A stretch of DNA of 19,211 bases. It comes from a virus (Duplodnaviria; Heunggongvirae; Uroviricota; Caudoviricetes). The notes below the pieces were generated by a model that searched no databases, had not been told where the DNA came from, and was given only the letters and a program-made list of their open reading frames with translations. The first letter of the stretch is position 1. Every line of letters starts with the position of its first letter. The translations under genes and the position numbers were made by a program. Of the stretch, positions 3,575 to 19,211 are shown one piece after another. The DNA is taken from IMG/VR virus record IMGVR_UViG_2687453529_000007. The stretch is one strand, 5' to 3'.

Positions 3575-3862
3575 ATGAAAAAAGTCACTTTTCCCCGGCT
3601 TTCCGGCTGGCTAGTCGCTTCCGCCGCGCTGTTTGTCGTGATCGGCTGGACCTCTTCCGCACAGATCCCGGTCGTCATTTATAAACTAAGCCTGGTTTCG
3701 CTTTCCGCGGTGCTGGGATACTGGCTCGATCGCAGTTTGTTCCCCTGGGCACGGCCTGACTCTTTTAGCCCCTGGAAGGAACCTCGTTGCTGCGCGGCGG
3801 CAATGATTCGCCGCGCCATCATCGTTGCCGCCGTCTGTCTTTCCGTCGCCTTAGGGCTATAG
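3575..3862 (+). CDS. Small multi-pass membrane protein, putative holin (95 aa)
   Basis: AGGAG RBS 7 nt upstream; three hydrophobic segments; stop overlaps the start region of the downstream lytic transglycosylase (TAGTGATG). Function inferred from position. Confidence 0.45.
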   Translation: MKKVTFPRLSGWLVASAALFVVIGWTSSAQIPVVIYKLSLVSLSAVLGYWLDRSLFPWARPDSFSPWKEPRCCAAAMIRRAIIVAAVCLSVALGL

Positions 3863-3864
3863 TG

Positions 3865-4470: not shown

Positions 4471-4482
4471 TCAGAGGGGCCG

Positions 4483-4797
4483 ATGAAACTCAGTATCGAT
4501 TTTTGGGAAGTGATCTCCCTTATGCTTTCCTTCGTTGGATTAATGTTTGCTGCCGGAAAACTGCTGTTAGCACAAATTGAAAAACGACTTAATGAGCGTT
4601 TTGAGTCTCTGGAAAATGCCCGCAGGGAATCAGAAACAAGTTGGTCGAAACTGGAAAGAGAATTTCTCGAATTTCGTGCCGAGCTTCCGCTGCATTATGT
4701 CCGCAGAGAAGATTATCTTCGTGGGCAAGCAGTATTAGAAGCGAAGCTGGATGCCTTATATAGCAAAATCGAGCTGTTACAACGTGGCAGTTATTGA
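4483..4797 (+). CDS. Lysis accessory protein, Rz/i-spanin-like (N-terminal TM helix + coiled coil), 104 aa
   Basis: N-terminal TM segment EVISLMLSFVGLMFAAGKLLLA followed by charged coiled-coil-like sequence; position after the endolysin. No convincing embedded lipoprotein (o-spanin) ORF found by eye. Confidence 0.4.
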   Translation: MKLSIDFWEVISLMLSFVGLMFAAGKLLLAQIEKRLNERFESLENARRESETSWSKLEREFLEFRAELPLHYVRREDYLRGQAVLEAKLDALYSKIELLQRGSY

Positions 4798-4802
4798 AAA
4801 AT

Positions 4803-4834
4803 CCCCACCCTTATGTAAGGGTGGGGATTTTTTT
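4803..4834 (+). terminator. Rho-independent terminator closing the lysis cassette
   Basis: CCCCACCC-TTATGTAA-GGGTGGGG stem-loop followed by ATTTTTTT; an A-run upstream makes it potentially bidirectional. Confidence 0.85.
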
Positions 4835-4941
4835 AACCATTCAATTTTTTCTCTAAATCACATTAAAAGATTCTTCACCTTCGCTGCTTCAGAATACATT
4901 TCAACGATAACGAAGTGAGCGGTAATTAAGGTACAGCCTAT

Positions 4942-5397
4942 ATGGAAATTTTATCTGTAATGAATTCTGTTGTGACCAGATTACGTGAACACAACTCCGA
5001 AATGGATATATTTATTTCATCTAAGGATGCCCAGAAATATATTCCACAGACACAACGAGTTGCAGTGATTATTAATTATAGCGGTTCTGTCTTTGCTACG
5101 CCCGAAAGCAGTAATGCCATCGTGCAACAGCAAATACTCCGCTTAACCGCCACCGTTATTGTTGGCAAAAATTGTGATGCATTAAACGCACTTGATCACA
5201 TACGCAGCGCATTGGGTGGCCTTCCGCTTCCTGATTGTGATCGTCTGCTTTGGCTTGAAAAAGAAATTAATACGGGTGAGAGCGGCGGTTTCTGCCGCTA
5301 CATCCTGGAAATGGCGACCAGCTCGCTGTTTATCGCTGAACAGGAAAGCACGGATCTTCCCCTGCTTACGGAAGTTAACTACGAGGAAACTGAATGA
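4942..5397 (+). CDS. Putative tail completion / sheath-terminator-like protein (151 aa)
   Basis: First gene after the terminator, immediately upstream of a small ORF and the sheath gene, coupled to the next ORF. Family assignment is by position only. Confidence 0.35.
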   Translation: MEILSVMNSVVTRLREHNSEMDIFISSKDAQKYIPQTQRVAVIINYSGSVFATPESSNAIVQQQILRLTATVIVGKNCDALNALDHIRSALGGLPLPDCDRLLWLEKEINTGESGGFCRYILEMATSSLFIAEQESTDLPLLTEVNYEETE

Positions 5398-5591
5398 AAT
5401 ACATCTACAACGGCCCAGCAAGCGGCGTCACCCTTGCCGATGGACAAGAAATCTTATTGTGGCCGAACAGTGAAATTGATCTGCCAGAAGACAACGAGTG
5501 GGTCATGACCATGATTGCCCGCAATCATCTGACTCCTGTCATCACTCAGGAAGAACAAAATAACGTAGAGGAAATTGTACATGGCAGCTAA
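5394..5591 (+). CDS. Small conserved phage tail-module protein (65 aa) preceding the sheath gene
   Basis: GAGGAA RBS; ATG overlaps the upstream stop (ATGA); 3' end overlaps the sheath start by 11 nt. Function unknown. Confidence 0.4.
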   Translation: MKYIYNGPASGVTLADGQEILLWPNSEIDLPEDNEWVMTMIARNHLTPVITQEEQNNVEEIVHGS

Positions 5592-7005
5592 TTATCTGCA
5601 CGGTGTAGAAACTATTGAAATTGAAACCGGCCCGCGTCCGGTTAAAGCGGTAAAATCCGCCGTCATCGCTTTAATCGGTACATCCCCCTGCGGTCCGGTA
5701 AATAAACCAACATTATGCCTTTCTGAAAGCGATGCTGCGCAGTTTGGCTCGACTCAGGCTAACTTTACGATCCCACAGGCACTGAAGGCAATTTATGACC
5801 ACGGTGCCGGTACGGTGGTGGTGATTAACGTGCTGGATCCGGCAAAACATGGCTCCAACATCAGCAATGAGAGTATCACTTTTGATGCTAACAACCAGGC
5901 GAAGCTCGCTCACCGCAATGTGCGTAACGTGGTACTAAAGCCCTCTTCATCAAATTCATCAACCTTTAACACCGCAGCATTTAGCGTAGATGAACAAACA
6001 GGCATAATTACCCGTAAAGGAGCCGACATTCCTCCTGGTGCGAAAGTTTGTGCCTATTATTCCTGGTGCGACCCTACAAAGGTCACCGCAGCCGATATTA
6101 TCGGTACCGTAAATACCGCAGGCGACCGCACGGGGATGAAACTCCTTCAGGACACCTATAACCTGTACGGTTTCTACGCCAAAATCCTGCTTGCTCCTGT
6201 GTTTTGTACGCAAAAATCGGTGACTACTGAGCTGATTGCACAAGCGGAAAAACTCGGTGCGATTACCTACATTGATGCCCCGATTGGGACAACATTCCAG
6301 CAGGTATTGGCTGGACGCGGTTCGCAAGGGGCTATCAACTTCAATACCAGCTCTGATCGTGCGCGTTTATGTTACCCACATGTCAAAGTTTACGATGGCA
6401 TCACTAACCAGGAAATTCTTGAGCCTCTCTCTTCGCGTGCTGCCGGGCTGCGTGCCAAAGTAGACCTCGAAAAAGGTTTCTGGTGGAGCAACTCAAACCA
6501 GGAAATTCAGGGTATTACCGGTATTGAACGTTCGCTTTCCGCAATGATTGATGATCCACAAAGCGAAGTGAATCAGCTCAACGAAAACGGCATTACCACT
6601 ATTTTCAATAGTTACGGCTCTGGTCTGCGCTTGTGGGGTAACCGCACAGCGGCATGGCCTACCGTGACCCATATGCGTAACTTTGAAAACGTCCGCCGGA
6701 CAGGCGATGTAATCAATGAGTCAATCCGTTATTTCAGTCAGCAGTATATTGATATGCCGATTAATCAGGCACTTATTGACGCGCTGACCGAATCGGTAAA
6801 TACCTGGGGCCGAAAACTGATTGCCGACGGCGCACTGCTTGGCTTTGAGTGCTGGTACGATCCGGCACGAAATTCACCGGCTGAACTCAGCGCCGGGCAT
6901 TTATTGCTGAGCTATAAATTCACCCCGCCACCGCCGCTGGAACGTCTGACGTTTGAAACTGAAATTACTTCTGAATATTTAGTCTCTCTGGAGAGCAATA
7001 GCTAA
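5581..7005 (+). CDS. Contractile tail sheath protein (P2 gpFI-like)
   Basis: N-terminus MAANYLHGVETIEIETG resembles P2 FI (YHHGVQVLEINEG) and the C-terminus LLSYKFTPPPPLERLTFETEITSEYL resembles P2 FI ([26 protein letters not shown]). GAGG RBS 9 nt upstream of ATG 5581; the track ORF begins at TTG 5575. Confidence 0.9.
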   Translation: MAANYLHGVETIEIETGPRPVKAVKSAVIALIGTSPCGPVNKPTLCLSESDAAQFGSTQANFTIPQALKAIYDHGAGTVVVINVLDPAKHGSNISNESITFDANNQAKLAHRNVRNVVLKPSSSNSSTFNTAAFSVDEQTGIITRKGADIPPGAKVCAYYSWCDPTKVTAADIIGTVNTAGDRTGMKLLQDTYNLYGFYAKILLAPVFCTQKSVTTELIAQAEKLGAITYIDAPIGTTFQQVLAGRGSQGAINFNTSSDRARLCYPHVKVYDGITNQEILEPLSSRAAGLRAKVDLEKGFWWSNSNQEIQGITGIERSLSAMIDDPQSEVNQLNENGITTIFNSYGSGLRLWGNRTAAWPTVTHMRNFENVRRTGDVINESIRYFSQQYIDMPINQALIDALTESVNTWGRKLIADGALLGFECWYDPARNSPAELSAGHLLLSYKFTPPPPLERLTFETEITSEYLVSLESNS

Positions 7006-7529
7006 TGGCTGGAAAAATTCAAATTAACCGTATTACCAACGCCAATATTTATCTCGATGGTAATAACCTTTTAGGTCGTGCAACAGAAATTAAATTGCCG
7101 GATGTAAGTTTAATTATGCAGGAGCATAAAGCACTGGGCATGGTGGGTAAAATCGAACTCCCGGCAGGTTTCGATAAACTGGAGGGCGAAATTAAATGGA
7201 ACTCCTTCTATCAGGACGTAATGCGTAAAACGGCAAACCCGTGGCAGGCGGTTGCATTACAGTGCCGCTCCAGTATTGATTGCTATAACTCCCAGGGGAA
7301 AGCGAATCAATTAGCGCTAGTGACACATTTAACCGTGATGTTTAAAAAGAATCCACTGGGCACATTTAAACAGAATGAAAACCCGGAATTCAGCAGCGCC
7401 TTTGGTTGCACTTATATTAAACAAGTAGTTGATGGTGAAACGCTGCTTGAACTTGATTATATGGCCAATATTTTCCGGGTTAATGGTGTGGATCAATTAA
7501 GTACCTATCGCAATAACATCGGTGGCTAA
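7005..7529 (+). CDS. Tail tube protein (P2 gpFII-like)
   Basis: Start overlaps the sheath stop; C-terminus NGVDQLSTYRNNIGG matches the P2 FII end NGVDRLEQHRRNIGL. Confidence 0.85.
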   Translation: MAGKIQINRITNANIYLDGNNLLGRATEIKLPDVSLIMQEHKALGMVGKIELPAGFDKLEGEIKWNSFYQDVMRKTANPWQAVALQCRSSIDCYNSQGKANQLALVTHLTVMFKKNPLGTFKQNENPEFSSAFGCTYIKQVVDGETLLELDYMANIFRVNGVDQLSTYRNNIGG

Positions 7530-7579
7530 GTTATTCGGGGCTACGGCCCCGAACTTTGCAAAATAAATAAGGACACAAA

Positions 7580-7897
7580 ATGAAAGAACATTATATCTTG
7601 CAGTTTCCATTTACGTCGGCAGCAGGAAATAATATCGACACGCTGCAATTACGTCGCCTGAAAGTAAAAGATATGCGCAACGCCCGCCGGATCAGCGAAA
7701 AGCCAGAAGAGTGGGATGAACCGCTGATGGCGGCGATGACCGGACTGGTGCCAGAAGATTTAGCCGAAATGGATTTGCTGGATTACCAGGCATTGCAGAA
7801 ACGATTTCAATCCATGCTTACCGTGGTTACAGAATCCTCCCCTGCTATGGCAGGCAATGGCGCTACTGGCGAGATGGTTTCGCTTTCCGCCCAGTGA
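7580..7897 (+). CDS. Tail assembly chaperone (gpE/gpG-like), short product
   Basis: Small acidic protein between tube and tape measure genes, the position of frameshifting tail chaperones. Confidence 0.6.
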   Translation: MKEHYILQFPFTSAAGNNIDTLQLRRLKVKDMRNARRISEKPEEWDEPLMAAMTGLVPEDLAEMDLLDYQALQKRFQSMLTVVTESSPAMAGNGATGEMVSLSAQ

Positions 7898-7985
7898 GAT
7901 AGACGCCCTTACCGTCGATGACTTTAGCAACTGGCTGGATGAAGCCAGCGCCCAAATAAAAATCGAATATGACTCGCAGACCTGA
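7580..7985 (+). CDS. Frameshift-extended chaperone isoform (E+E'-like), requiring a +1 shift
   Basis: A +1-frame ORF is open from 7764 to the TGA at 7983-7985 and would append ...PPSEIDALTVDDFSNWLDEASAQIKIEYDSQT. The only candidate shift motif seen is CTT_TCC at 7883-7888. Site and mechanism are not proven. Confidence 0.4.
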
Positions 7986-8086
7986 TGTCTGCGAGTTTCC
8001 CAAGCCCGTCAGGTTTATTTCTTCCCTGCCCCTTTTTTTAGAAAAATAACCAGCGGGCCATTATCAATATTTAAAGAGAAACAATT

Positions 8087-8887
8087 TTGGCCAACGATAT
8101 TATTACCCAGCTTCAGGCGCGTAATGAGACGTTGACGCAGGCAATAGCCCGTTACGGCTCACTCAACGCCAGAACATTGTTAACTCTCTCTACTCAGCAG
8201 GCGACAGTTATCAAACTAACGCAGCAGCTTGCCGATTCCGCTCTCCGCCTGGAGGAAAATAGCCGCAGCCGCGCTAATCTGATGGAGAAAACCCAAACAT
8301 TTGCCGGGCAATTTAGCAAAGTATTCAATGTTGAAGCCCCCGACTGGAAGTTGCCGTATGAGTTTCAGGACAACATGGTCAATATGGCGACCAAAGGTGG
8401 GATGAATGCTACAACCCGCGAGACGCTCAGCCTTAATCTGCGCGACTGGAGCATGGATTTTAACCAGCAGCAGACCACCTTACAGAACGCAGCCCAAACG
8501 CTGATCGAAGGCAATTTGTCGTCGATGCAGGATCTCAACCGTTATATGCCGGAGATCGCCAAAGCTGCCACCGCCACGCGCGAAAGTGCTGAAACGTGGG
8601 CGAATGCCGCGCTCGCGACTCATGATCGACTGAATATTGCCCCGGAAAATTTCCACGCCGCGCAAAACATGATGTACGGCATTAGCAAAAGCGGTGGGCC
8701 TGCCATTGCTGAACAAACGCAGTGGATAGAGAAATTTGCAGGTAAAACCGGCGCTCAGGGTCTGGAAGGTATGGCTGAACTGACTGCCGCCATGCAGATC
8801 GCAATGAAAAATGGGGCCAGCGCCAGTGCGGCGGCGGAGAATTTTGAACCACTTTCTGCAAACCACCTTTTCGAAAAAAACCGATAG
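8087..8887 (+). CDS. Tail tape measure protein, N-terminal segment (frame A); TTG start
   Basis: Helical N-terminal region typical of tape measure proteins; ends at TAG 8885-8887 while a second frame continues. In-frame stop at 8072-8074 restricts the start to the TTG at 8087 (RBS AAGAG upstream). Confidence 0.6.
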   Translation: MANDIITQLQARNETLTQAIARYGSLNARTLLTLSTQQATVIKLTQQLADSALRLEENSRSRANLMEKTQTFAGQFSKVFNVEAPDWKLPYEFQDNMVNMATKGGMNATTRETLSLNLRDWSMDFNQQQTTLQNAAQTLIEGNLSSMQDLNRYMPEIAKAATATRESAETWANAALATHDRLNIAPENFHAAQNMMYGISKSGGPAIAEQTQWIEKFAGKTGAQGLEGMAELTAAMQIAMKNGASASAAAENFEPLSANHLFEKNR

Positions 8888-10463
8888 CTGGTTCGCCAGC
8901 CAGGGCGTCGATCTGCAAGGCTCTCTGCTTGAACATCAGCAAAACGGTATGGGTGTTAGCGAAGCCATGACTCATATCGTACAAATGCAGCTTGAGAAGA
9001 TGAACCCGGCGATCCTCGACACCTTCAAACGTACTATGCAGATTGAAGATTTATCTGCTCGCAGCAATGCGCTGCAATCGATGGTGTCGCAATTTAATCT
9101 GGGCGAAATGTTCGGCGATGTGCAAACGGTGGAATTCCTGGCACCTATGCTGGCGAATATGGAGGAATATCGCCAGTTAAAAGCCTCTGCCATGCAAGCC
9201 ACCAGCAAGAATCTGATTAACGCTGACTTTTCTGCGCAAATGGCCTCGCCCATTGAACAGACTAAAGCGTTACAGCTGGCATTAAATGATTTATGGCTCA
9301 GCATTGGTTTGCAGCTTATGCCGGCGATTGGCGAGCTGGCACAAAGCCTTACGACGGTTATTCGCCAGTTCAGCGCCTGGCTACGCGAACATCCGGCGCT
9401 GGTGCAAAACATTGCGAAAATCGTCGGGGCGGTTTGGCTGTTTAACGGCGCGCTGAATGTTTTAAAGCTGGGCGCGAACCTCATCACCTCGCCGTTTATT
9501 CGTCTGGTCGATATCTTCCTGAAAGTCAAGGCAAGTCTGGCGCTCACAGGCGGGGCAAGTAAGATGCTATCAGCGGTTAAGTCATTGGGTGGCGGCGCAA
9601 AATGGCTAATGCAACTGCTTGGTCGTGGCCTGATTGGCGCACTGAAACAGGTAGGTCAGACCGTCTTCTGGTTGGGTAGGGTTTTATTGATGAATCCCAT
9701 TGGTCTGGTCATCACTGCGATTGCGGGCGCTGCTTATCTGATTTGTCGCAACTGGGAGCCTATCTCCAGGTTCTTTTCGACCATCTGGCAACGTATCACC
9801 ACGGCCTTTGACGGCGGCATTGCAGGAATTTGTCGGTTGATTCTCGACTGGTCACCGCTGGAGTTGTTCTATAGCGCCTTTTCCAGTGTGATGAATTGGT
9901 TTGGTGTCGAGATGCCTGCAAGTTTTAGCGAGTTCGGCAGCAATCTTCTGGGCAGTCTGGTTGACGGCATAATGAATGCCTTCCCCGCTCTGAAAGGCAT
10001 TATTGATCAGGTAAAAAACGCCATCCCAGACTGGCTAAAAACCACGATGGGTATTAGTACAGAAGGATCGGCTACAGCTATTACAAGCACGACTAATACC
10101 GCATCCGTCTCCCCCGCGACCGTTGTTCCAGGCGTTGCCGGTGCGATTTTAACACCGCCGGTGGGCAAACAACTCGCGCCATCCGGCAAAACGGCTACGC
10201 CGTCATCGGCGCCAGCGGCAAAAAATACAGCCGCCAAACCCGTATCTGCCTCTTTACCTGGTAAATCCGTAACCAAACCGGCGACGCTACCCTCCCGTTC
10301 CTCAGGAAAAGTCCAGGTAAATTTTTCGCCACAAATTACCGTGCAGGGTAACGGACAAAACACCACTAAAGAGATTCAGAACGTGTTGACGATGAGTAAA
10401 CGCGAACTGGAAAGAATGATTAACGATGTAATGGCGCAGCAGCAGCGCCGGGGGTATGCCTGA
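8811..10463 (+). CDS. Tail tape measure protein, main/C-terminal segment (frame B, +1 relative to frame A)
   Basis: Frame B opens after the TGA at 8805-8807 and encodes typical tape-measure content (LQTTFSKKTDSWFASQGVDLQ motif region, long hydrophobic/Gly-Ala-rich middle, Ser/Thr/Pro-rich tail). Segments together total about 790 aa. Confidence 0.65.
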   Translation: MGPAPVRRRRILNHFLQTTFSKKTDSWFASQGVDLQGSLLEHQQNGMGVSEAMTHIVQMQLEKMNPAILDTFKRTMQIEDLSARSNALQSMVSQFNLGEMFGDVQTVEFLAPMLANMEEYRQLKASAMQATSKNLINADFSAQMASPIEQTKALQLALNDLWLSIGLQLMPAIGELAQSLTTVIRQFSAWLREHPALVQNIAKIVGAVWLFNGALNVLKLGANLITSPFIRLVDIFLKVKASLALTGGASKMLSAVKSLGGGAKWLMQLLGRGLIGALKQVGQTVFWLGRVLLMNPIGLVITAIAGAAYLICRNWEPISRFFSTIWQRITTAFDGGIAGICRLILDWSPLELFYSAFSSVMNWFGVEMPASFSEFGSNLLGSLVDGIMNAFPALKGIIDQVKNAIPDWLKTTMGISTEGSATAITSTTNTASVSPATVVPGVAGAILTPPVGKQLAPSGKTATPSSAPAAKNTAAKPVSASLPGKSVTKPATLPSRSSGKVQVNFSPQITVQGNGQNTTKEIQNVLTMSKRELERMINDVMAQQQRRGYA

Positions 10464-11416
10464 TGTATGCCGTTTTAGGAGAGATTGAATTTAAGGTTGT
10501 CACATTCTGGGACGGCTTTAAAAGCACAATGGGCGTGGATTACGCCACACATGCCCGTATAGAAGGCAAACCCGGCGTGCAGTTTATTGGCGATAAGCTG
10601 GATATGCTGGCGCTGGAATTTTCCCTGCACAGCCAGTTTTGCCAGCCCACAACAGAGCTGAACCGACTGCGTGAAGCCATGCTTGCTCACAAGGCGATGG
10701 CACTGGTATTTGGCAATGGCGATTATCGCGGCTGGTTTGTGATTACGGAGCTAACCGCCACCCACCAGCACACCGATCCCTGGGGCAATGTGATTGCCCA
10801 AAACGGAACGATGTCGCTCCAGGAGTACACCGGCGATCCTAAAAATCCACTTTTACCTCCGGCGATTACCACCCAGGAGCCCAACATCGAGGAAAAGGCG
10901 AGCGATTTTCCCGACAAGGTGGAGTCCTGGTTTGATCAGATATTAAACGCCATCGAAGAAGGTATGCGTAAGGCCAAAGAGATGCTGGATGAACTGACAC
11001 AAGCCATTGAAGATATTAAAAAAACGGTGGCAAAAGTGAAAGCAATGATTAAAGAGGCCAAAGCGTTAAAAGAAAAGTGTGAAAAGATAATTACGTCATT
11101 GAAAAAGACAATCGACGCCATCGAAACCCTGTTTAAACAGCCAATGGATCTGCAAACGCTGGCAGGACTCCCAAAAGCGTTGTCGGCGCAGATTAAAACT
11201 TTACTGGGTAACATGCCAGGTATCCGGGACTGCGCCAATGACGCCAGTACACTGGTTGACCATGCTCAGGCGCTTTTCGACGACATTACCAGCGACATCG
11301 CCGAAGCGACGTTTGATAAAGCCGCAACGTTGGTTGATCAGGCACGAACAACGGTACAACAAACCACTCCCACAGTGAGCCAGCTTGCTGCCGCGACCAT
11401 TACGAGGATCTGGTGA
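10463..11416 (+). CDS. gpU-like tail protein with long C-terminal coiled-coil extension (317 aa)
   Basis: Sits between tape measure and gpX/gpD as P2 gpU does; ATG overlaps the tape measure stop (TGATG). C-terminal ~190 aa are E/K/A-rich predicted coiled coil. Assigned by synteny and weak N-terminal resemblance. Confidence 0.5.
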   Translation: MYAVLGEIEFKVVTFWDGFKSTMGVDYATHARIEGKPGVQFIGDKLDMLALEFSLHSQFCQPTTELNRLREAMLAHKAMALVFGNGDYRGWFVITELTATHQHTDPWGNVIAQNGTMSLQEYTGDPKNPLLPPAITTQEPNIEEKASDFPDKVESWFDQILNAIEEGMRKAKEMLDELTQAIEDIKKTVAKVKAMIKEAKALKEKCEKIITSLKKTIDAIETLFKQPMDLQTLAGLPKALSAQIKTLLGNMPGIRDCANDASTLVDHAQALFDDITSDIAEATFDKAATLVDQARTTVQQTTPTVSQLAAATITRIW

Positions 11417-11625
11417 TGCGATACCTTGAACATATCACCACCGACGGCGAACGCTGGGATAATCTGGCATGGCATTACTACGGTGATGCGCTGGCTTATG
11501 AACGCATAATCGCCGCCAATCCACATGTAGCCATTTACCCGGTACTGCCTTCCGGTATTCAGCTCATTATTCCGGTCATTTCCGTCAATAAAACCTTATC
11601 GGAGATCCCACCATGGCTGAGATAA
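11416..11625 (+). CDS. gpX-like small tail protein (LysM-like fold)
   Basis: Pattern L-x-x-I-x-x-x-x-ERWD-x-L-A-W-x-YYGD...AANP...LPSG matches the P2 gpX family; ATG 11416 overlaps the upstream TGA (track start 11413 is a GTG). Confidence 0.6.
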   Translation: MRYLEHITTDGERWDNLAWHYYGDALAYERIIAANPHVAIYPVLPSGIQLIIPVISVNKTLSEIPPWLR

Positions 11626-12653
11626 GCGTAACTGGTGGCGTCTTTGCCACACTCACGCCCATTTTTACCCTCTGGTATGGGCATAAAGATATCACTTATG
11701 ACATCACACCCTATGTCACCAGCATCAGTTACCACGACAGCATCAAAAACGAGTCGGATACCATCGCAATTACACTGGATGACACAGATGGACGCTGGAT
11801 AAAAGAGTGGTATCCCGGCAAAGGCGATACGCTGGCGCTGCATATGGGTTATCAGGGAGAGAAGCTGCTCGATTGTGGTCAGTATATTATTGATAAAATT
11901 GATATTTCAGCGCCACCTTCTACGGTAAATATTGATGGCATCGCCACTTCCGTCAATCAGGCGCTGCGCACCCGTAACAGCCAGGGTTTTGAAGAAACGA
12001 CGCTTTCGGCTATCGCCAGCCGTATCGCACAAACTCACGGCCTAAAGCTGGTGGGCAAAATCGAGCCTCTGACAATTGACCGGGTGACACAGTACGGCGA
12101 AACCGATGTTGGATTTCTCAAACGTCTGGCCAGTGAATATGGTTATGCCGTAAAAGTGACGACGAAAGAGCTGATTTTTTCACATTTACCCACGCTGCGC
12201 TGCCTGGCACCTGTGAAAAAGATCGACCGCAAAGACGTTTCGCATTTCACCTTCAAAGATACCATTAACCGTATCTACAAAAACGCCACCGTACAGCATC
12301 AAAATAGTAAGAAAAAAGAACTGGTTATCTACACTCACAACAGCCAGCAAAAACCGTCTGCCCGTGGAGTCGGCACCAGTGCCGACACGCTAAAACTGAA
12401 CAGTCGGGCGACGGACGTTGGCGCAGCACAGGCAAAAGCCAACGCTGCACTCGACAGCCACAACGAATATCAGCAAACCGGAACGCTCACAATGATGGGC
12501 TGCCCGGAACTGACGGCGGGCAATAAAATCGAGCTAACCGATTTTGGCGTGCTTTCCGGTCAATGGCTAATTGATAAATCGACTCACAGTTTTGTGCGCA
12601 GCGGCTATACCACTGAAATCGACGTGTCGCGCGGGCCAGCGACCAGCCAGTAA
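11613..12653 (+). CDS. gpD-like tail protein (late control D family; baseplate hub)
   Basis: Collinear similarity to P2 gpD: TLSAIASRIAQ / DVGFLKRLASEYG / C-terminal DFGVLSGQWLIDKSTHSFVRSGYTTEIDV. GGAG RBS. Confidence 0.8.
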   Translation: MAEISVTGGVFATLTPIFTLWYGHKDITYDITPYVTSISYHDSIKNESDTIAITLDDTDGRWIKEWYPGKGDTLALHMGYQGEKLLDCGQYIIDKIDISAPPSTVNIDGIATSVNQALRTRNSQGFEETTLSAIASRIAQTHGLKLVGKIEPLTIDRVTQYGETDVGFLKRLASEYGYAVKVTTKELIFSHLPTLRCLAPVKKIDRKDVSHFTFKDTINRIYKNATVQHQNSKKKELVIYTHNSQQKPSARGVGTSADTLKLNSRATDVGAAQAKANAALDSHNEYQQTGTLTMMGCPELTAGNKIELTDFGVLSGQWLIDKSTHSFVRSGYTTEIDVSRGPATSQ

Positions 12654-12662
12654 GGAGGAAAT

Positions 12663-13364
12663 ATGAAAGGAGTAACCCGTCAAACGGGGATTATCAGCGA
12701 TATTGACGAAACCAGCGTTCGGGTGCGGGTCACGCTCCCGGAGTGTGACAATCTGAAGAGCAACTGGCTTGCGGTACTTCAACGCAATTCCCAGGACAAT
12801 AAAGACTACTGGCTACCGGATATGGGCGAGCAAGTGGAAGTTCTGCTGGACAATAACGGTGAAGATGGCGTGGTGCTGGGCGCAGTTTATTCTACGGTTG
12901 ACACCGCGCCTGTAGCCTCGCGCGACAAACGTTACGTCCAGTTTTCTGATGGCGCAGCGTTTGAATATGACCGCAGCACGCACCAGCTGACGATCAACGG
13001 CGGTATCGAGAAAATCGTGATTGAGGTTATCAACGGTACCTGCCTGACATCGCCCAACGTTGAGATTAAAGCCCAACAGGTCACCGTGACTTCCGATACC
13101 GTCGATGTTAAAGCGACCGATGTCAGCATCGACGCCACTAAGGTCGAGGTTAAAGCAGCAGCAGTGACGGTAGATGCGCCCATGAGCACCTTTACTGGCA
13201 ACGTCACGGTAATGAAAAAACTCACCTGGCTTGGCGGGATGGCAGGAAGTGGAGGCATCGGTAACGCAGCCACGATAACCGGCAATGTCAACGTGATCGG
13301 CAACGTTCAGGCCAGCGGCGCATTGCAGGACAGCGGTGGCAACTCCAACCACCATTCACACTGA
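12663..13364 (+). CDS. gpV-like baseplate spike protein
   Basis: Strong RBS TAAGGAGG; MGEQVEVLLDNNGEDGVVLGAVYS and VQFSDGAAFEYDRSTHQLTINGG match P2 gpV motifs; C-terminal His-rich tip NHHSH. Confidence 0.85.
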   Translation: MKGVTRQTGIISDIDETSVRVRVTLPECDNLKSNWLAVLQRNSQDNKDYWLPDMGEQVEVLLDNNGEDGVVLGAVYSTVDTAPVASRDKRYVQFSDGAAFEYDRSTHQLTINGGIEKIVIEVINGTCLTSPNVEIKAQQVTVTSDTVDVKATDVSIDATKVEVKAAAVTVDAPMSTFTGNVTVMKKLTWLGGMAGSGGIGNAATITGNVNVIGNVQASGALQDSGGNSNHHSH

Positions 13365-13369
13365 CGTTT

Positions 13370-13399
13370 AACCCGCCTGATGGCGGGTTTTCTCTTTTT
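13370..13399 (+). terminator. Intrinsic terminator inside the tail gene cluster (between gpV-like and gpW-like genes)
   Basis: AACCCGCC-TGAT-GGCGGGTT stem-loop followed by TTCTCTTTTT. Confidence 0.7.
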
Positions 13400-13462
13400 A
13401 ATCAATCAGTTTTCTAAATCGCTTTAATATCTCCACAGCCCGTTCAGGGCGAAAATACCCTC

Positions 13463-13822
13463 ATGAACACAAAAACACGCCCCTCAACGCTGCACTGGCA
13501 ACCGGCCTTGCTGCGGCCTGAAGAATACGTCTGCGGACTGGATGATATTCACCAGGCAATACACATCATTCTGCGTACACCGCGCGGCAGTGATCCCCAC
13601 AGACCGCTGTTTGGCAGCAACTTGTGGCACTACATCGATTACCCCATCGAGCGGGCTATCCCGCATGTGGTACGGGAGTCGGTGGAAGCCATCCGCCAGT
13701 GGGAACCGCGCTGTCGGTTGCTGAAGGTGACACCAGTAATCGACGGCGAACATCTGACGTTACGTGTGCAATGGCGCGCCGCTGACGGCGTTATCAACTC
13801 AACGGAGGTGTTATGGCGATAG
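13463..13822 (+). CDS. gpW-like baseplate protein (GPW/gp25 family)
   Basis: ILRTPRGSDPHRPLFGSNLWHYIDYP and WEPR match P2 gpW (ILRTPVGSRVMRRDYGSLL...IDQP, KWEPR). Confidence 0.85.
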   Translation: MNTKTRPSTLHWQPALLRPEEYVCGLDDIHQAIHIILRTPRGSDPHRPLFGSNLWHYIDYPIERAIPHVVRESVEAIRQWEPRCRLLKVTPVIDGEHLTLRVQWRAADGVINSTEVLWR

Positions 13823-14928
13823 CCGAACCCAATTTTATTGACCGCGATCCTGCGCAAATTACCAGTGAGATGATTGCGCAATACGAAGATGCCAGTGGTA
13901 AAAAACTCTATCCGGCACAGGCTGAGCGGTTGCTCATCGACCTGTTTGCCTATCGTGAAAACCTTGTACGCATCGCCATTCAGGAAGCGGCGAAACAAAA
14001 CCTGGTCGCGTATTCCCGCGCGCCAATGCTGGATTATTTAGGAGAGCTGGTGGGCGTTCACCGTTTGCCTGCGCAGCCAGCAAAAACGACGTTGCAGTTT
14101 TCGGTCGTCAGTGCGTATACCAGCAATATCCTGATTCCCCAGGGGACGCGGGCCAGTGCCTCTGATAGCGTGATGTTCGCCACCGATGAAGATGTTCTGC
14201 TTCCGGCCTGGAGTTTGCATATCGCCGTTCCTGCCACCAGCCTCGCAGCAGGTGAACAGGGTAACGGCTGGCAGCCTGCACAAATTAGCGCTCTGGTCGA
14301 CAGGATTGGTCATTATGACATCAACGTAACCAACCTGACTGCGTCAACGGGCGGCTGCGGTGAAGAGAGCGATGACGCATTGCGCCAGCGTATCCAACTG
14401 GCACCAGAAAGCTTTAGTAATGCGGGCAGCTATGGCGCATACCGCTTTCATACGCTTTCTGTTAGCCAGTCGATTATTGACGTTGCAGTACTGGGGCCGG
14501 ACGAGGGATTGCCAGAAGGCTGCGTGGAGATCTACCCGCTAACCCTGAATGGACTGCCAGGAATAGAACTGCTCGCGCAAATCGAACAGGAGGTTAGCAA
14601 GGAGAAAAAACGTCCGCTGACCGACAAAGTGAGTGCGAAATGCGCTCTTCGAGTGCCGTATGAGATCCGTGCGCAGCTAACGCTGTTTACCACCGCCGAT
14701 CAGGAGACAACGCTGGCTGCGGCGCGTAAAGCGATTAGCCTCTGGACGCAACAGCGGCAGAAACATCTGGGGCAAGACATTGTGCCAAACCAGATAATCA
14801 AAGTGTTACAGGTCGATGGCGTCTATGACGTTGCGCTGAACTTGCCTACAAAACGTATTTTGCAGGCGCATGAATGGGCGGAATGCACTGCAATAGACGT
14901 CACGATCGCCGGAGTTAGCGATGGATAA
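13813..14928 (+). CDS. gpJ-like baseplate wedge protein
   Basis: Size, position after gpW and overlapping start (GGAGG RBS) fit the P2 gpJ / Mu gp47 family. Confidence 0.8.
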   Translation: MAIAEPNFIDRDPAQITSEMIAQYEDASGKKLYPAQAERLLIDLFAYRENLVRIAIQEAAKQNLVAYSRAPMLDYLGELVGVHRLPAQPAKTTLQFSVVSAYTSNILIPQGTRASASDSVMFATDEDVLLPAWSLHIAVPATSLAAGEQGNGWQPAQISALVDRIGHYDINVTNLTASTGGCGEESDDALRQRIQLAPESFSNAGSYGAYRFHTLSVSQSIIDVAVLGPDEGLPEGCVEIYPLTLNGLPGIELLAQIEQEVSKEKKRPLTDKVSAKCALRVPYEIRAQLTLFTTADQETTLAAARKAISLWTQQRQKHLGQDIVPNQIIKVLQVDGVYDVALNLPTKRILQAHEWAECTAIDVTIAGVSDG

Positions 14929-15637
14929 ATTGCTACCACCGCCGCCGCTTGCCAGCGATGAGCGTTTTTCGATTCTGGCAAATATCGCCGCCGAGCGTTT
15001 TGCCCAACTCGATCTGACGGCGTTGATGGTTTATCTGGTCGACCTGGTTGATGCTTCGGCATTACCAGCCCTTGCAGAACAATTTCACGTTCAGGGGTTG
15101 GAAGGTTGGTTATTTACCACCGATGAGCGGGAGAAACGCGAGTTAATTAAACAAGCCATTGAACTGCATAAATATAAAGGAACAATTTGGGCGGTGCGGC
15201 GGGTGCTGGAAATACTCTCCTTACCCGGAACTATTTCAGAATGGTTTGAATATGGGGGAAGGGCTTACTTTTTTAAGGTTGATATTACACTAGAGAAAAA
15301 AGGATTAAATGAAGATGAATTCAATGCACTTATCACATTAATTCATGAATATAAAAATGTCCGTTCAAAGCTGGAAAGCATTGTTATTTGGCTTATTAAT
15401 CGAAGCCCAATACCAGTTATTGGCAGTGCCATGCAAGGAGGGGAAGTCATTACAGTATTGCCTCCTGTTGCAGAAAGCCTCAGCCAGTCATCTGGAATAT
15501 TTTTAGCGACAGGTTATTGTGTGGAGGAATATATTCAACTACTACCTTATCAACCCGATCGACTAACACAATCCCAACCGATGAAGGTCGGCACAGGATA
15601 CTGGAGCACCGAAATTATGTCTGTATATCCGGAGTAA
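14921..15637 (+). CDS. gpI-like baseplate/tail protein
   Basis: [15 protein letters not shown] matches P2 gpI HCHKGTIGAIRRVVE; overlaps the gpJ-like stop. Confidence 0.8.
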
Positions 15638-15639
15638 TA

Positions 15640-17250
15640 ATGGCAAGTGAATTTTTTACAATATTAACTGCTGCAGGCAAAGCCAAAATTGCCTCAGCAC
15701 TGGCCGAGCAAAAACAGATCCGTCTGCAAACTATGGTAGTTGGCGACGGTAATGGTAAATATATCGAACCGACAGAAAGTCAGACCAAAGTAGTCCATGA
15801 GGTCTGGCGTGGTCAGCTCAATACATTAAAAATTGCGCCAGATAATCCGGCCTGGGTTATCGCAGAAGCGATTATTCCCGAACAAGTCGGAGGCTGGTAT
15901 GTACGCGAAGTTGGGTTACTGGATACCGACGGCACGATGGTCGCTATTGGTAAATTCCCGGAAACCTATAAGCCACGATTACCTGCGGGGGCCAGTAAGC
16001 AAATCGTTATACGCGCGGTCATGGAAGTCACCAATGCAGATGCGGTGACGCTTTTGATCGACCCTTCAGTCGTTGTGGCAACCAGGGAATATGTCGATGA
16101 CGCGTTGAAAACACATCAGCAATCACGAAATCATCCTGATGCGACGCTGACACAAAAAGGTTTTACGCAGCTGAGTAATGCGACTAATAGCGATGATGAA
16201 ACCAAAGCGGCCACGCCAAAAGCGGTAAAAACGGCATATGACCTGGCAAATAGCAAAGCTGCCACCAGTCATAATCATGCCTGGAATCAGATTACTGGTA
16301 TCCCTGATGGTACACTGACGCAGAAAGGAGTCGTTAAGCTTAACAATACAACAAATAGCACCAGTACGACGGAAGCTGCAACACCAAGTGCGGTTAAGGC
16401 AGCGATGGATAAGGCTATTGCTGCGGCACCGTCCAGCCATACCCATGCCTGGGGGCAAATAACAGGTATCCCCGACGGTACGCTGACGCAAAAAGGGGTC
16501 GTGAAACTTAATAATGCGACCAACAGCACCAGTACGACGGAAGCTGCAACGCCGAACGCTGTTAAGGCAGCGATGGATAAGGCTATTGCTGCGGAAAGCT
16601 GTCCTGTTGGGATGCCTATTCCCTGGCCATCTGATTCTGTACCTTCAGGCTACGCTCTGATGACAGGTCAGACATTTAATAAAACCTCCTATCCCAAACT
16701 GGCAATTGCATATCCATCTGGTGTTATTCCTGATATGCGCGGATGGATAATTAAAGGAAAACCATCCAGTGGGCGCGCTATATTATCTACTGAACTGGAT
16801 GGAGTTAAATCACATAACCATACGGGCAGTATTTCGAGTACGGACTTAGGGACGAAATCTGTATCATCAATAGATCTAGGAACAAAGAACACTCAGTCAT
16901 TTAATCATGGGATAAAAACAACAAATACAGCAGGCGCGCATAGCCATGATAGTGGTTCTGGCGAAAGTAGTGAGGGGGGAAAACCTCGGTATGGTACTCG
17001 TGATAACACAACAAATAATTTTGGTTCTGGTGAATCAGATCATGACAATTACAAATTTAACACATCCACGGATGGAGAGCATGCACATTCAGTTAATGTT
17101 GGCTCACACTCTCACTCTGTTATTTTAGGGTCACATAATCATTCAATTGCCCTTGGTTCCCATAATCACTCCCTAACCATTAATAATACCGGCAACACCG
17201 AAAACACCGTCAAAAATATCGCATTCAACTATATTGTGAGGCTAGCATGA
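15640..17250 (+). CDS. Tail fiber protein (P2 gpH-like N-terminus, repeat-containing shaft, His-rich C-terminal receptor-binding region), 536 aa
   Basis: N-terminus [18 protein letters not shown]...HEVWRGQLN...[20 protein letters not shown]...[14 protein letters not shown] is collinear with P2 gpH. GGAG RBS 5 nt upstream of ATG 15640; the track ORF 15517 begins upstream inside the gpI-like gene. Confidence 0.85.
16267..16602 (+). repeat. Tandem 168-bp (56-codon) direct repeat, two copies, within the tail fiber gene
   Basis: Two near-identical units encoding SH(N/T)[47 protein letters not shown], with a degenerate third copy upstream; matches the phage tail fiber repeat class. Confidence 0.8.
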
Positions 17251-17954
17251 ATACTTTTACCTTTTCCGATGAAGCTCAAATACTAACTGTATATAATTTT
17301 TCACAAGACTCCCAAGAATATATCGGTGAGTCTGATGCATACATTGCACCTAATACAGGCTTGCCAAATTATTGCACATTAATTTCACCTCCCGAAAAGG
17401 TTCCTGGTTTTACTCCAGTGTGGGAGAATGAAACATGGAGACTTATTGAAGATCATCGAGGCCAAACTGTTTATAACAAAGTTGATGGTAGCCAGCTTAT
17501 TATTCAAGAATTGGGCCAATTACCTGAAAATGTAACAGTCATTTCCCCGACAGGTTCTTTTGAACGTTGGGATGGTGAAAAATGGCAACCATCTATAACC
17601 GATGCTAAAGAGGCGAAATACTCTGCAATCAAAAATCAACGCGATGCCATCACAACCGATTACATCATCATCAACAACCATCACTTCCACAGTGATACAA
17701 ATAGCCGTATCCAACAGCTTTCACTCACAAAAATGGGAGCGGAGAAAAAAATTCCGCCAGGTTTAATGTGGAAAACTAAAAATAATGGTCTGATTGAGTT
17801 AACCAACGAAATCGCTGCCCAGTTTGAATCGGTCACCATGGATCACGATATGCGCTTGTTCGCAAACGCCCAGCGTCATATCGCGGCGGTGGAAGCACTG
17901 GACGATATTCAGGCGGTGCTCGACTACGATTATTCAACAGGCTGGCAACCATGA
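17247..17954 (+). CDS. Tail fiber assembly chaperone (Tfa / gpG family)
   Basis: N-terminal half [44 protein letters not shown]...[34 protein letters not shown] closely parallels lambda Tfa; ATGA overlap with the fiber gene stop. Confidence 0.85.
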
Positions 17955-18406
17955 GTAAAACCACTGTCTGGCTCGCTTGTTATAAGGGCCGAACAGAGCA
18001 CCGTGGTATTGCCCGACTGGCTGACTGGCTTACCCGTAAAATCACACGCGGTCATTATTCCCACTGTGAATTAGCCGTTAAGCATGGTGAAAAGAGATAC
18101 CTTTGTTACTCTGCATCACTGCGCGATCGCGGTGTACGCGGAAAGATAATGCCATTGCCAGCGGATAAGTGGGATATGCTGCCGCTCCAGGCTAGCCTTC
18201 AGGATGTGGAAACTTTTTTCCGTAAACATGATGGCAAAAAATATGACTGGCGCGGAGCATTAGGAATTATTACCGGTAATAAAGAACAGCGCGATCGCCT
18301 GTTTTGCAGTGAATTTTGTGCTGAATTTCTGCAACTGAAGGAAAGCTGGCGCTATTCTCCAAACCACTTGTACGCTTTAGTCAGCAGCTGGCAATACCAG
18401 CAATAA
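17951..18406 (+). CDS. Hypothetical protein (151 aa) coupled to the tail fiber chaperone; possible His/Cys permuted-papain-like (LRAT/NlpC-P60 superfamily) enzyme
   Basis: ATGA overlap with the Tfa stop. Contains GHYSHCELAV and, about 75 residues later, RLFCSEFCAEFL, loosely resembling the His-then-Cys motif order of permuted papain-fold proteins. The fold assignment is tentative. Confidence 0.5.
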   Translation: MSKTTVWLACYKGRTEHRGIARLADWLTRKITRGHYSHCELAVKHGEKRYLCYSASLRDRGVRGKIMPLPADKWDMLPLQASLQDVETFFRKHDGKKYDWRGALGIITGNKEQRDRLFCSEFCAEFLQLKESWRYSPNHLYALVSSWQYQQ

Positions 18407-18419
18407 ATCACGCCGGGCT

Positions 18420-19211
18420 TTATGCCCGGCACATTACCGTTTGATACAGCAAATTATCTAGCTCCCGAACATCTCCATCTCGACTGTCCGGTAAAATCGG
18501 TGGAATTTCCCCGCGCGCCAGTTCCGCGCGAATAAACGCATGCAATAAAGGACGGCGCAGTCCATATTCCGCTTCACTCGCACGCTGTTTACGCTCCAGC
18601 AATTCATCTATTTCTGCGCGTAAGGCCGCATCCAACTCACTTCCCGCCAGTAACTCGGCAAAGCGCATTGGCGGCACGCCTTTTCCCGCTTCAACCCAGC
18701 GTACGGCCAGCAGCGGGCGCAGCACGTAAAAGTATTTTTTCAGTCGAACTTCGTCGCCCTGTAAATAACCGCGAAAGTTTTTCTGCGCCATCGAATAGTA
18801 ATGCCAACGCGCGCGCAACGAAGAAAACCACATTGGGACCATTGCCTTAAGCGCCGTTATCGTTTCTTCATCTTGTTGATAGACCACCGGAGAATCCAGC
18901 CATTCTATCAGCGTCGGATTCGCGCCTTTCAATAATCCCAGCGCCTTACGCCACTCCCAACCGGAAACATCTAACTCGTCGTCGATAGGCAGTTCGATAA
19001 CATCGCGCGGTGACTCTACACGCAGATACCATTCTAGCGGATGGACATACAAAAACCGTACATCGTAGTCGCTATCGGGCGAGGCAAATCCCCAGCCGCG
19101 GCTGCCTGATTCACAGGCGTACAGCACTTTCACGCCATAGCGACGTTCTATTTCTTTTAACTGCTGCGATACCCGTTCGCGCATCGCAGCACTGACTCCA
19201 TTTAATGGCAT
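18420..19211 (-). CDS. Pol-beta-superfamily nucleotidyltransferase-like protein (263 aa), convergent with the tail operon
   Basis: N-terminal motif ESGSRGWGFASPDSDYDVRF matches the G[SG]-x9-13-D-x-D nucleotidyltransferase signature, followed by a helical C-terminal domain; start codon is at the window edge (19209-19211). Confidence 0.55.
   Translation of the reverse strand: MPLNGVSAAMRERVSQQLKEIERRYGVKVLYACESGSRGWGFASPDSDYDVRFLYVHPLEWYLRVESPRDVIELPIDDELDVSGWEWRKALGLLKGANPTLIEWLDSPVVYQQDEETITALKAMVPMWFSSLRARWHYYSMAQKNFRGYLQGDEVRLKKYFYVLRPLLAVRWVEAGKGVPPMRFAELLAGSELDAALRAEIDELLERKQRASEAEYGLRRPLLHAFIRAELARGEIPPILPDSRDGDVRELDNLLYQTVMCRA

Follow-up and report, generated by a model that had tools for sequence, protein, structure and literature searches.

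A mosaic tail fibre with a repeat shaft between a P2-type base and a T4 gp37-type tip in a probable R-type tailocin cluster between lysC and yjbD

Overall structure of the fibre

The window, a stretch of 19,211 nucleotides from a virus record (IMGVR_UViG_2687453529_000007), encodes a tail fibre at positions 15640–17250. This fibre is likely to be a trimer that binds the receptor for a headless contractile-tail cluster, in Mu order, of the E. coli chromosome; the cluster is itself a probable R-type tailocin. Judged by homology, the fibre is a chimera of known modules, with a repeat shaft between a P2-type base and a T4-type tip predicted to bind metal. In the Pfam scan of the fibre, PF12571, three PF03406 repeats and PF07484 each scored above the curated cut-off. 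The ORF list and translation gave a protein of 536 aa plus stop (ATG at 15640, stop codon at 17248–17250) with the MASEFF start common to fibre homologues, and DNA 100 % identical to the gene carries the RefSeq name 'phage tail protein' (WP_022646408.1). The features discussed below are as follows.

2690–15637, no single strand: headless tail cluster in Mu order (Pfam and PHROG scans, RefSeq annotation of the related locus L001, Mu gene order)
14921–15637, plus strand: gpI-type baseplate protein (PF09684)
15640–17250, plus strand: tail fibre gene (phrog_295 tail fibre, 747 bits; ORF list and translation)
15640–16098, plus strand: P2 gpH-type baseplate-attachment domain, aa 1–153 (PF12571 at aa 1–149, 200 bits)
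16099–16266, plus strand: shaft unit 1, aa 154–209, diverged, with RNHPD in place of HxH (PF03406)
16267–16434, plus strand: shaft unit 2, aa 210–265, starting with SHNHAW (aa 210–215; HxH codons at 16270–16278)
16435–16602, plus strand: shaft unit 3, aa 266–321, starting with SHTHAW (aa 266–271; HxH codons at 16438–16446)
16591–16860, plus strand: first part of the gp37 D10 'collar/knob', aa 318–407 (PF07484; alignment to T4 gp37, 2XGF)
16861–17160, plus strand: needle stem and distal tip, equivalent to gp37 D11, aa 408–507 (alignment)
16951–17070, plus strand: hypervariable distal segment, aa 438–477, predicted receptor-contact region (tip alignment)
17161–17247, plus strand: C-terminal return strand of D10, aa 508–536 (last HxH at 17161–17169)
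17247–17954, plus strand: tail fibre assembly chaperone, 235 aa (PF02413, 30.9 bits against a cut-off of 22.1; PF14301, 54.5 bits)

The tail cluster and its probable function

The cluster was described from the window and from L001, a RefSeq-annotated locus 99.98 % identical to the window cluster. It contains a Mor regulator on the minus strand (PF08765), a holin (PF13272), an SLT lysin (PF01464), a membrane protein and a Gp37-family protein, followed by sheath, tube, chaperone, tape measure, gpU-like, X, D, V, W, J and I genes; between the lysis genes and the sheath gene, the window ORFs comprise only the Gp37-family protein and a 65-aa ORF. In L001 the order is lysC, the cluster, a nucleotidyltransferase, slipin, yjbD and rluF. 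No capsid, portal, terminase, integrase or replication genes were found in the cluster, and its flanks are the host core genes lysC and yjbD. All genes of a contractile tail are present (sheath, tube, tape measure, hub, baseplate wedge, fibre and chaperone), with the tape-measure gene intact in L001 and truncated in the window by a 1-nt insertion at 8848. If this insertion does not merely reflect a sequencing error, the truncation may have left the window copy non-functional.

The initial annotation had made the role of the fibre in a killing spectrum conditional on the locus being a tailocin. The lysis cassette, the full tail set in Mu order, the headless gene content and the core-gene flanks suggest that it is one, and the lysC–yjbD cluster is thus a probable R-type tailocin with predicted bactericidal activity. 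It was present in 195 of 5426 complete Escherichia coli genomes (3.6 %), and a syntenic cluster lies at the same site in Salmonella. A functional tailocin at this site could be common to Escherichia and Salmonella and be retargeted by swaps of the T4-type needle with the chaperone kept.

An unlikely alternative is that the locus is a decaying prophage remnant, in which case the fibre would be a passenger without present function and its mosaicism would stem from recombination among phages in the past and not from any selection on a killing spectrum. The frameshift in the window tape-measure gene fits such decay, but apart from this the 16-kb gene set is intact, with 99.98 % identity from one independent strain to another, and the cluster has kept its own regulator and lysis cassette. 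The presence of the cluster in so few of the complete E. coli genomes also points this way, whereas occupation of the identical site in both genera does not. In the RefSeq annotation of strain AR_0013, gpI is flagged as frameshifted and the fibre is split into fragments marked incomplete; against this stand several intact fibre alleles on one conserved backbone, a pattern shared with carotovoricin (PMC13195805), and the codon differences between shaft units 2 and 3, which suggest purifying selection because 17 are synonymous and 7 are non-synonymous. A search of the literature for tailocins at lysC in E. coli or Salmonella gave nothing specific and no publication on activity at this locus, which is in line with a remnant.

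Two published loci were considered as possible counterparts. The 'ST131 tailocin' paper (PMC9205054) describes two elements, s2-ST131 as an intact P2-like prophage and s1-ST131 as an incomplete remnant; these were not equated with the lysC–yjbD locus because the paper places neither at lysC. The Salmonella LT2 gene STM4200, a serovar marker (PMC6201931) that bears the name 'putative phage tail fiber', is plausibly the orthologous fibre given the gtr genes STM4204/4205 in the same cluster, although the two are not equated here. An invertase-driven fibre switch in the style of Mu or carotovoricin was rejected, as neither an invertase nor an inverted alternative fibre was found in the window or L001.

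N-terminal domain and shaft repeats

The N-terminus, initially annotated as P2 gpH-like, is confirmed as such: in addition to the PF12571 match, aa 24–264 aligned to P2 gpH at 48 % identity (BLASTP, E 1e-68). Assignment to the P2 gpH type is further supported by PF03406 (173 bits in three stretches) and by the gpI gene upstream. Searches of the N-terminal 160 aa against PDB sequences gave no significant match. In the allele alignment, the C-terminal part of gpI (from about aa 120, the C-terminal third) was found to co-vary with the N-terminal type of the fibre. The AlphaFold2 monomer model of the full fibre, built from a 25-sequence alignment, was unusable (mean pLDDT 38, pTM 0.24); intertwined trimers call for multimer prediction.

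The shaft region 16267–16602 had been described as an exact 168-bp tandem duplication. Its tandem arrangement, 168-nt period and position stand, but the copies are not exact. They form two in-frame 56-aa units identical at 136 of 168 nt (81 %) and 49 of 56 aa (88 %), with identities of 83 % by TRF and 84 % over 162 nt by repeat search, and they share no exact run longer than 34 nt. A third, diverged unit lies immediately upstream and had been missed; 26 of its 56 aa are identical to units 2 and 3, and it matches Mu gpS residues 101–158 in PDB 5YVQ. Pfam likewise detected three Phage_fiber_2 (PF03406) repeats in the shaft. By sequence comparison, the shaft is an array of three 56-aa Phage_fiber_2 repeats, of which the duplication is the younger part.

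Every shaft unit except the first opens with the motif [S/N]HxHxWxQ(I/V)T, which the initial annotation had also overlooked and which is missing from P2 gpH and Mu S. Against the PDB, the repeat region matched a single Mu S unit only, and the HxHxW-bearing unit has no solved structure there. The motif could make the shaft a metal-stapled rod with its length quantised in 56-aa, one-metal steps. We put forward only tentatively the joint proposal that the shaft HxHxW motifs are extra His6 metal sites and that the lysC–yjbD cluster works as a Mu-type tailocin not characterised before.

Among the 120 closest homologues the shaft repeat number ranged from 2 to 6, which agrees with the earlier suggestion that the repeat could allow length variation. 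One two-unit allele, P0009, differs from a three-unit E. coli allele by the loss of exactly 56 aa; its remaining unit is chimeric, and within the crossover interval lies a stretch of 26 nt over which window units 2 and 3 are identical. About 95 complete genomes carry the fibre at an identity of at least 99 % and with three units, and because they share this form the length change is attributed to evolutionary recombination rather than to rapid slippage.

It is accordingly very improbable that the array is a contingency locus, at which replication slippage between the 168-bp copies would rapidly vary fibre length in a population. The array is indeed head-to-tail and in frame and homologues do differ in copy number, but slippage would call for near-identical copies and for copy-number differences among otherwise identical strains, whereas these copies are only 81–84 % identical with no longer exact run than that given above, and the genomes sharing the three-unit fibre come from unrelated hosts. 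Moreover, the sole inferred deletion event bears the signature of a single homologous crossover.

The gp37-type tip and the downstream chaperone

The C-terminal region was compared with the solved tip of T4 gp37, which it had initially been said to resemble. The relationship proved closer: aa 317–536 aligned to chain residues 25–242 of PDB 2XGF (phmmer E 3.1e-66; 62 % identity by MAFFT), and on this alignment the C-terminal 220 aa is a true homologue of the gp37 receptor-binding tip. The Collar domain PF07484 was detected at aa 324–370 with 41.6 bits against a cut-off of 24. The GSH(S/N)HS motifs first noted in this region were found at aa 488–514 (28 protein letters not shown).

Six of the seven T4 iron-binding HxH motifs are kept in the tip, at aa 392, 434, 481, 490, 499 and 508, compared with 0.8 HxH expected by shuffling (P about 1e-5). 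Five are invariant across 15 aligned tips while the loops between them vary. The equivalent of T4 H929/H931, the iron site nearest the tip and essential in T4, is absent from the window tip in the alignment. Such motifs are established as octahedral Fe sites in gp37 (PMC6957217) and in R-pyocin fibres (PMC6116203).

Following the D10 domain limits of PMC6957217, the first part of D10 is highly conserved (0.83–0.98) and contains the first tip HxH (aa 392–394, nt 16813–16821). The D11 equivalent holds the four at aa 434, 481, 490 and 499 (nt 16939–16947, 17080–17088, 17107–17115 and 17134–17142). The return strand shows the same conservation of 0.83–0.98, with a near-invariant segment (18 protein letters not shown) identical to the T4 gp37 C-terminus. 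Between these conserved parts, aa 438–477 have an identity to the window of only 0.15–0.25 across the 15 aligned tips; this segment is the counterpart of the T4 tip subdomain at about residues 932–959, in which mutagenesis places receptor binding (PMC6957217).

The remaining rival sees in the C-terminus no gp37-type metal-stapled needle but a generic tail, His-rich or of low complexity, or a region of chaperone interaction. It may draw on the simple composition (Gly, Ser, His, Thr) and the one missing T4 motif, but is almost certainly wrong, being effectively refuted by the full-length 2XGF alignment (E 3e-66) with its conserved collar and C-terminal strand, and being further opposed by the invariant HxH set among variable loops and by the shuffle test.

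The gp37-type tip is spread across many proteins: 242 representatives of 50 %-identity clusters matched at E<=1e-30, and among the best 150 of these 242 nearly all matches were C-terminal, in proteins of 214–1599 aa. From this distribution, the tip is a widespread graftable module. GC content is 42 % in the tip and Tfa gene compared with 50 % in the tail genes.

The N-terminal ~135 aa of the downstream chaperone are gp38/Tfa-like (25 % identity to T4 gp38, BLASTP E 2e-12), and its C-terminal DUF4376 part is kept in all alleles. A Tfa-type gene also adjoins gp37-type tips in lambdoid, P2-like and T4-like phages.

Proposed assembly and exchange of fibre modules

The above features suggest a model of fibre assembly in which the P2 gpH-type N-terminal domain would dock onto the gpI/gpJ baseplate wedge and the three Phage_fiber_2 units would set the reach of the fibre, with the gp37/gp12-type collar coming after the shaft. 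In the needle, each HxH would contribute two histidines from each of three chains, giving six predicted octahedral Fe(II) sites that staple the trimer, and the distal loops at aa 438–477 would contact the receptor on the target cell. Folding and trimerisation probably require the gp38/Tfa-like chaperone encoded just downstream.

The initial annotation had proposed comparing C-termini and repeat number across strains, and this comparison revealed tips swapped as cassettes and shafts of 2–6 units; neither an invariant copy number nor a generic chaperone-interaction C-terminus without HxH was seen, the HxH motifs being conserved. Variation among the E. coli cluster alleles was concentrated in the fibre tip or in the whole fibre cassette. 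Specificity may evolve by homologous recombination at conserved module borders; the candidate borders are the gpI N-part, the shaft repeats, the collar, the final ~30 aa and the DUF4376 half of Tfa. The exchanged piece would be either the distal needle alone or the whole gpI-C/fibre/Tfa-N cassette, and unequal crossing-over between units would change shaft length in 56-aa steps.

If the cluster is active, it is this fibre that sets the range of strains killed by an E. coli tailocin. The allele series would then be ready-made material for retargeting experiments or engineered tailocins, since it offers distal-needle swaps on a constant backbone and chaperone, whole-cassette swaps and shafts of 2 to 6 units. 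The fibre is also a clean natural example of modular evolution, in which a repeat shaft joins a P2 base to a T4 tip on a Mu-ordered tail. Little is new in concept, as fibre mosaicism, HxH needles of the gp37 type and the exchange of tailocin fibres are already established.

Comparison with known systems

The closest counterpart of the tip is T4 gp37 (2XGF): the whole solved tip is aligned, the D10 collar is conserved, 6/7 HxH are shared, the final 23 residues are near-identical, the last 18 of them fully so, and a gp38/Tfa-like gene lies downstream. The two differ in that the window tip sits on a 316-aa P2-type body rather than on the 800-aa gp37 shaft, lacks the H929/H931 site and is followed by a chaperone with a DUF4376 domain additional to gp38. 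The distal loop (aa 438–477) is unrelated in sequence to that of T4, and therefore the receptor need not be OmpC or LPS.

P2 gpH shares the N-terminal domain and the Phage_fiber_2 repeats (48 % identity, E 1e-68), and in P2 the fibre gene likewise comes after the gpI homologue and before an assembly gene. However, P2 gpH has two repeats ~44 aa apart without the 12-aa HxHxW-QIT insert of the window and its C-terminal receptor domain is unrelated, while the tail genes around the window fibre follow Mu order rather than P2 order. With Mu S/U, the similarity extends to the Phage_fiber_2 unit matching Mu S residues 101–158 (PDB 5YVQ) and to the cluster gene order, which equals that of Mu from gp37 through U; Mu S has a different N-terminus and C-terminus, and Mu uses an invertible G segment.

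The same tip–Tfa pair occurs adjacent in lambdoid (Stf/Tfa), P2-like and T4-like phages at 60–75 % identity. Such sharing among phages illustrates the classical horizontal exchange of fibre cassettes. The fibres with this pair belong to complete phages, in contrast to the window fibre in its headless chromosomal cluster.

In the R-type pyocin (PA0620) and Pectobacterium carotovoricin tailocins, a headless contractile tail has its spectrum fixed by the fibre, as is predicted for the window fibre. HxH is a further point of likeness, forming an Fe(II) site in the shaft of the pyocin fibre (PMC6116203). The receptor domains differ, that of the R-type pyocin fibre having a lectin fold. Carotovoricin differs in its invertase-driven fibre switch, but its fibres are also exchanged by homologous recombination on a conserved backbone (PMC13195805), and the E. 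coli alleles appear to have been exchanged in the same manner.

Fibre gene and proposed architecture

The 15640–17250 interval that the initial annotation assigned to a tail fibre corresponds exactly to one ORF, with its ATG at 15640 and its stop at 17248–17250. The ATG lies two bases past the gpI stop, and the fibre stop overlaps the start of the next gene, a gp38/Tfa-like chaperone gene (Tfa), as ATGA. The features of the window used below are as follows.

1–924, IS903B-type DDE transposase
1053–1616, TonB-dependent receptor fragment
8087–10463, 791-aa tape-measure gene, present as ORFs 8087–8887 and 8811–10463
14921–15637, gpI
15640–17250, plus strand, 536-aa tail fibre
16099–16266, 16267–16434 and 16435–16602, shaft units 1, 2 and 3 (56 aa each)
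17247–17954, Tfa chaperone gene
17951–18406, 151-aa ORF
18420–19211, minus strand, RlaP-family nucleotidyltransferase

Three Pfam families scored above their curated cut-offs in the fibre: the tail-collar fibre N-terminal domain PF12571 (aa 1–149, 200 bits), Phage_fiber_2 PF03406 (three stretches, 173 bits) and Collar PF07484 (aa 324–370, 41.6 bits). The whole protein falls in tail-fibre families in PHROGs (phrog_295, 747 bits), and a ten-residue N-terminal start is common to the fibre and its homologues. Alignment of aa 24–264 with P2 gpH at 48% identity (E 1e-68) confirmed the P2 gpH-like N-terminus proposed from the sequence alone.

The best-supported model, which we consider probable given the observed homology, module borders and allele patterns, is a trimeric fibre with a P2-type base, a repeat shaft and a gp37-type needle. 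The N-terminal domain would dock on gpI/gpJ and the shaft would set the reach of the fibre, while the needle would fold with Tfa, be stapled by about six Fe sites and contact an outer-membrane receptor through its variable distal loops. Specificity would evolve through cassette recombination and fibre length through unequal crossover. Metal binding, assembly, receptor recognition and killing are predicted properties of such a fibre.

Genomic context and distribution of the cluster

Positions 1509–19211 of the window were 99.98% identical to the cluster copy of E. coli CFSAN061771 (L001). The gene order in L001 is lysC, Mor (minus strand), holin, SLT lysin, membrane protein, Gp37-family protein, 65-aa protein, sheath, tube, chaperone, tape measure, gpU-like protein, X, D, V, W, J, I, fibre, DUF4376-Tfa, 151-aa protein, nucleotidyltransferase and slipin (both minus strand), yjbD and rluF. 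Since no head, integrase or replication genes were found in the lysC–yjbD region of L001, the cluster has, on its gene content, a tailocin architecture. The sheath gene was present in 195 of 5426 complete E. coli genomes, chromosomal in every case, and Salmonella carries a syntenic cluster with the same core genes downstream. A literature search found no paper characterising particles from the lysC–yjbD cluster.

The cluster could instead be a functionless remnant. Relative to L001, an extra A at 8848 splits the tape-measure gene of the window, reflecting either a defective cluster copy or a sequencing error, and gpI is frameshifted in one strain. Such frameshifts would fit a remnant, but the backbone is conserved, the cluster is syntenic across genera and divergence of the repeats is mostly synonymous. 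The remnant reading was therefore considered unlikely.

In E. coli FDAARGOS_497 (NZ_CP033850.1, 1819644–1848035), the sheath and fibre genes, both 100% identical, are separated by ~25 kb rather than ~8.6 kb, which implies an insertion of ~17 kb inside the tail cluster. In the Salmonella enterica cluster (L009), the baseplate genes V and W are separated by an inserted gtrABC operon for O-antigen glucosylation (4909–7744). At the other end of the window, positions 1–1508 are not homologous to the usual pgi–lysC region; the receptor fragment abuts lysC, which is thereby missing the first ~223 nt as well as the lysine riboswitch. The IS903B-plus-receptor-fragment unit was found on many plasmids and chromosomes, and its junction with lysC was seen in no complete E. 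coli genome.

The 151-aa ORF, which has no Pfam match and whose phrog_1128 annotation looks unreliable, is conserved downstream of Tfa in Salmonella and across every E. coli allele. In E. coli it is the nucleotidyltransferase and then a slipin (SPFH) gene that lie between the tail cluster and yjbD (22781–24705 in L001); these may be a defence-type gene pair, absent at the corresponding position in L009.

Shaft repeats

The 168-bp tandem duplication reported at 16267–16602 exists, lies where stated and keeps the reading frame, though the claim that it is exact does not hold. Units 2 and 3 are identical at 136 of 168 nt (81%) and 49 of 56 aa, with a longest exact run of 34 nt and codon differences that are synonymous in 17 cases and non-synonymous in seven. 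Tandem Repeats Finder gave a period-168 array at 16265–16594 (2.0 copies, 83% matches), and a second repeat search gave 84% over 162 nt with a weaker three-copy family extending back to 16135; the third, diverged unit upstream (unit 1) is identical at 26 of 56 aa. Units after the first open with [S/N]HxHxWxQ(I/V)T in every homologue examined, whatever the tip type. The corresponding motifs in the window, SHNHAW at aa 210 and SHTHAW at aa 266, had been overlooked, and a PDB sequence search with the repeat region found no HxHxW-bearing unit variant among solved structures.

The suggested variation in repeat number was borne out among the 120 best homologues, which have 2, 3, 4, 5 or 6 units (2, 3 or 4 in the gp37-tipped members). 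One two-unit homologue (P0009, 470 aa) corresponds to the three-unit E. coli allele in L003 (526 aa) shortened by exactly 56 aa, with 16 substitutions besides. In its second unit, the sequence up to NNTT resembles unit 2 and that from TPN on resembles unit 3; the crossover interval includes a 26-nt run identical between the window units (16357–16382, 16525–16550), which is the footprint of unequal homologous crossing-over. Neighbouring units of the six-unit E. albertii alleles differ by 1–2 residues, suggesting recent expansion. On short timescales the array is stable, since ~95 complete E. coli genomes, taken from a range of hosts, share the window fibre at at least 99% identity. This stability, together with copies that are just 81% identical, makes a slippage-driven contingency repeat very improbable.

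The gp37-type tip

Fibre aa 317–536 matched the solved T4 gp37 receptor-binding tip (2XGF) at 62% identity (E 3e-66), which establishes the previously noted resemblance as homology and leaves practically no room for a generic His-rich tail. The reported GSH(S/N)HS motifs are present, and the tip contains six HxH motifs (aa 392, 434, 481, 490, 499 and 508) versus 0.8 from shuffling (P about 1e-5). Those of T4 gp37 lie at 883, 915, 929, 966, 980, 989 and 998. In T4, the D10 collar comprises residues 811–881 plus 1010–1026 and D11 (stem plus tip) residues 882–1009; the HxH histidines coordinate seven irons, and receptor contacts are located in the distal tip subdomain (PMC6957217). The same HxH-to-octahedral-Fe(II) site occurs in R-type pyocin fibres and phage spikes (PMC6116203).

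In an alignment of 15 gp37-type tips, which took in T4 and one E. coli allele along with the window and 12 database homologues, conservation relative to the window was 83–98% in the collar (aa 318–407) and the last 29 residues. Five HxH motifs were invariant, the motif at 434 was present in 60%, and aa 438–477, which corresponds to the T4 tip subdomain, was just 15–25% conserved. The needle thus combines a conserved scaffold, predicted to be metal-stapled, with a distal end that varies, the layout expected of a receptor-binding module. Inside the hypervariable segment, the two copies of a 20-nt direct repeat (16946–16965 and 17015–17034, 80% identical) code for DSGSGES and NFGSGES, spaced by 23 aa, a possible trace of the needle's up-and-down symmetry.

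A whole-library HMMER scan matched the tip to 242 representatives of 50%-identity clusters (E<=1e-30); the match was C-terminal in nearly all of the best 150 of these, in proteins of 214–1599 aa. The tip is a common module, joined to many fibre bodies, and it adjoins a Tfa gene in lambdoid, P2-like and T4-like phages. The window Tfa has PF02413 (Caudo_TAP, 30.9 bits) and PF14301 (DUF4376, 54.5 bits) domains, and its N-terminal 135 aa are 25% identical to T4 gp38 (E 2e-12). GC content was 42.2% in the tip and 41.8% in Tfa versus 50.2% in the tail genes, consistent with a foreign origin of both.

Fibre alleles on a shared backbone

At least three E. coli fibre classes were found on the cluster backbone.

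Fibre classes of the E. coli cluster
Class A: window type; ~95 genomes
Class B (L003, L004): identical to the window up to nt 1218 (aa 406) and once more close to the C-terminus; stem and tip differ, with 5 HxH
Class C (L005, L006): N-terminal type MDNEFY, 4 units, Gly-rich C-terminal domain, different Tfa N-terminal part

The class B and window Tfa proteins differ by one residue. In protein alignments, the swap between classes A and C takes in gpI from about aa 120 to its C-terminus, the fibre in full and the first ~135 aa of Tfa. Among the E. coli alleles, gpI hardly changes before about aa 120, and conservation is about 100% in the DUF4376 half of Tfa; these conserved parts likely mark recombination borders. 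Other Escherichia species have fibres with a small 77-aa C-terminal domain and 4–6 units. In strain AR_0013 (L004, 3501–5078) RefSeq gives the fibre as two partial pseudogene fragments; frame 0 gives an intact 526-aa class B fibre, and the split looks like an annotation artefact.

Comparison with known systems

It has long been established that P2, Mu, lambda and T4 fibre segments are exchanged horizontally. There is little new in the fibre, an uncharacterised member of a known fibre kind, because its modules are all from curated families, its tip has a solved homologue and RefSeq already has it annotated as WP_022646408.1. The HxHxW-bearing 56-aa shaft unit is mildly new, as is the finding that Escherichia and Salmonella have a conserved headless, Mu-ordered tail cluster bearing T4-type tips. 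P2 gpH lacks the 12-aa HxHxW insert, and its two repeats lie ~44 aa apart. Relative to T4 gp37, the window fibre lacks a counterpart of H929/H931. Phage Mu S has a single repeat unit in common with the fibre and nothing more, and the cluster follows the Mu gene order from gp37 to U. The E. coli allele pattern mirrors the recombination-mediated fibre exchange of carotovoricin (PMC13195805).
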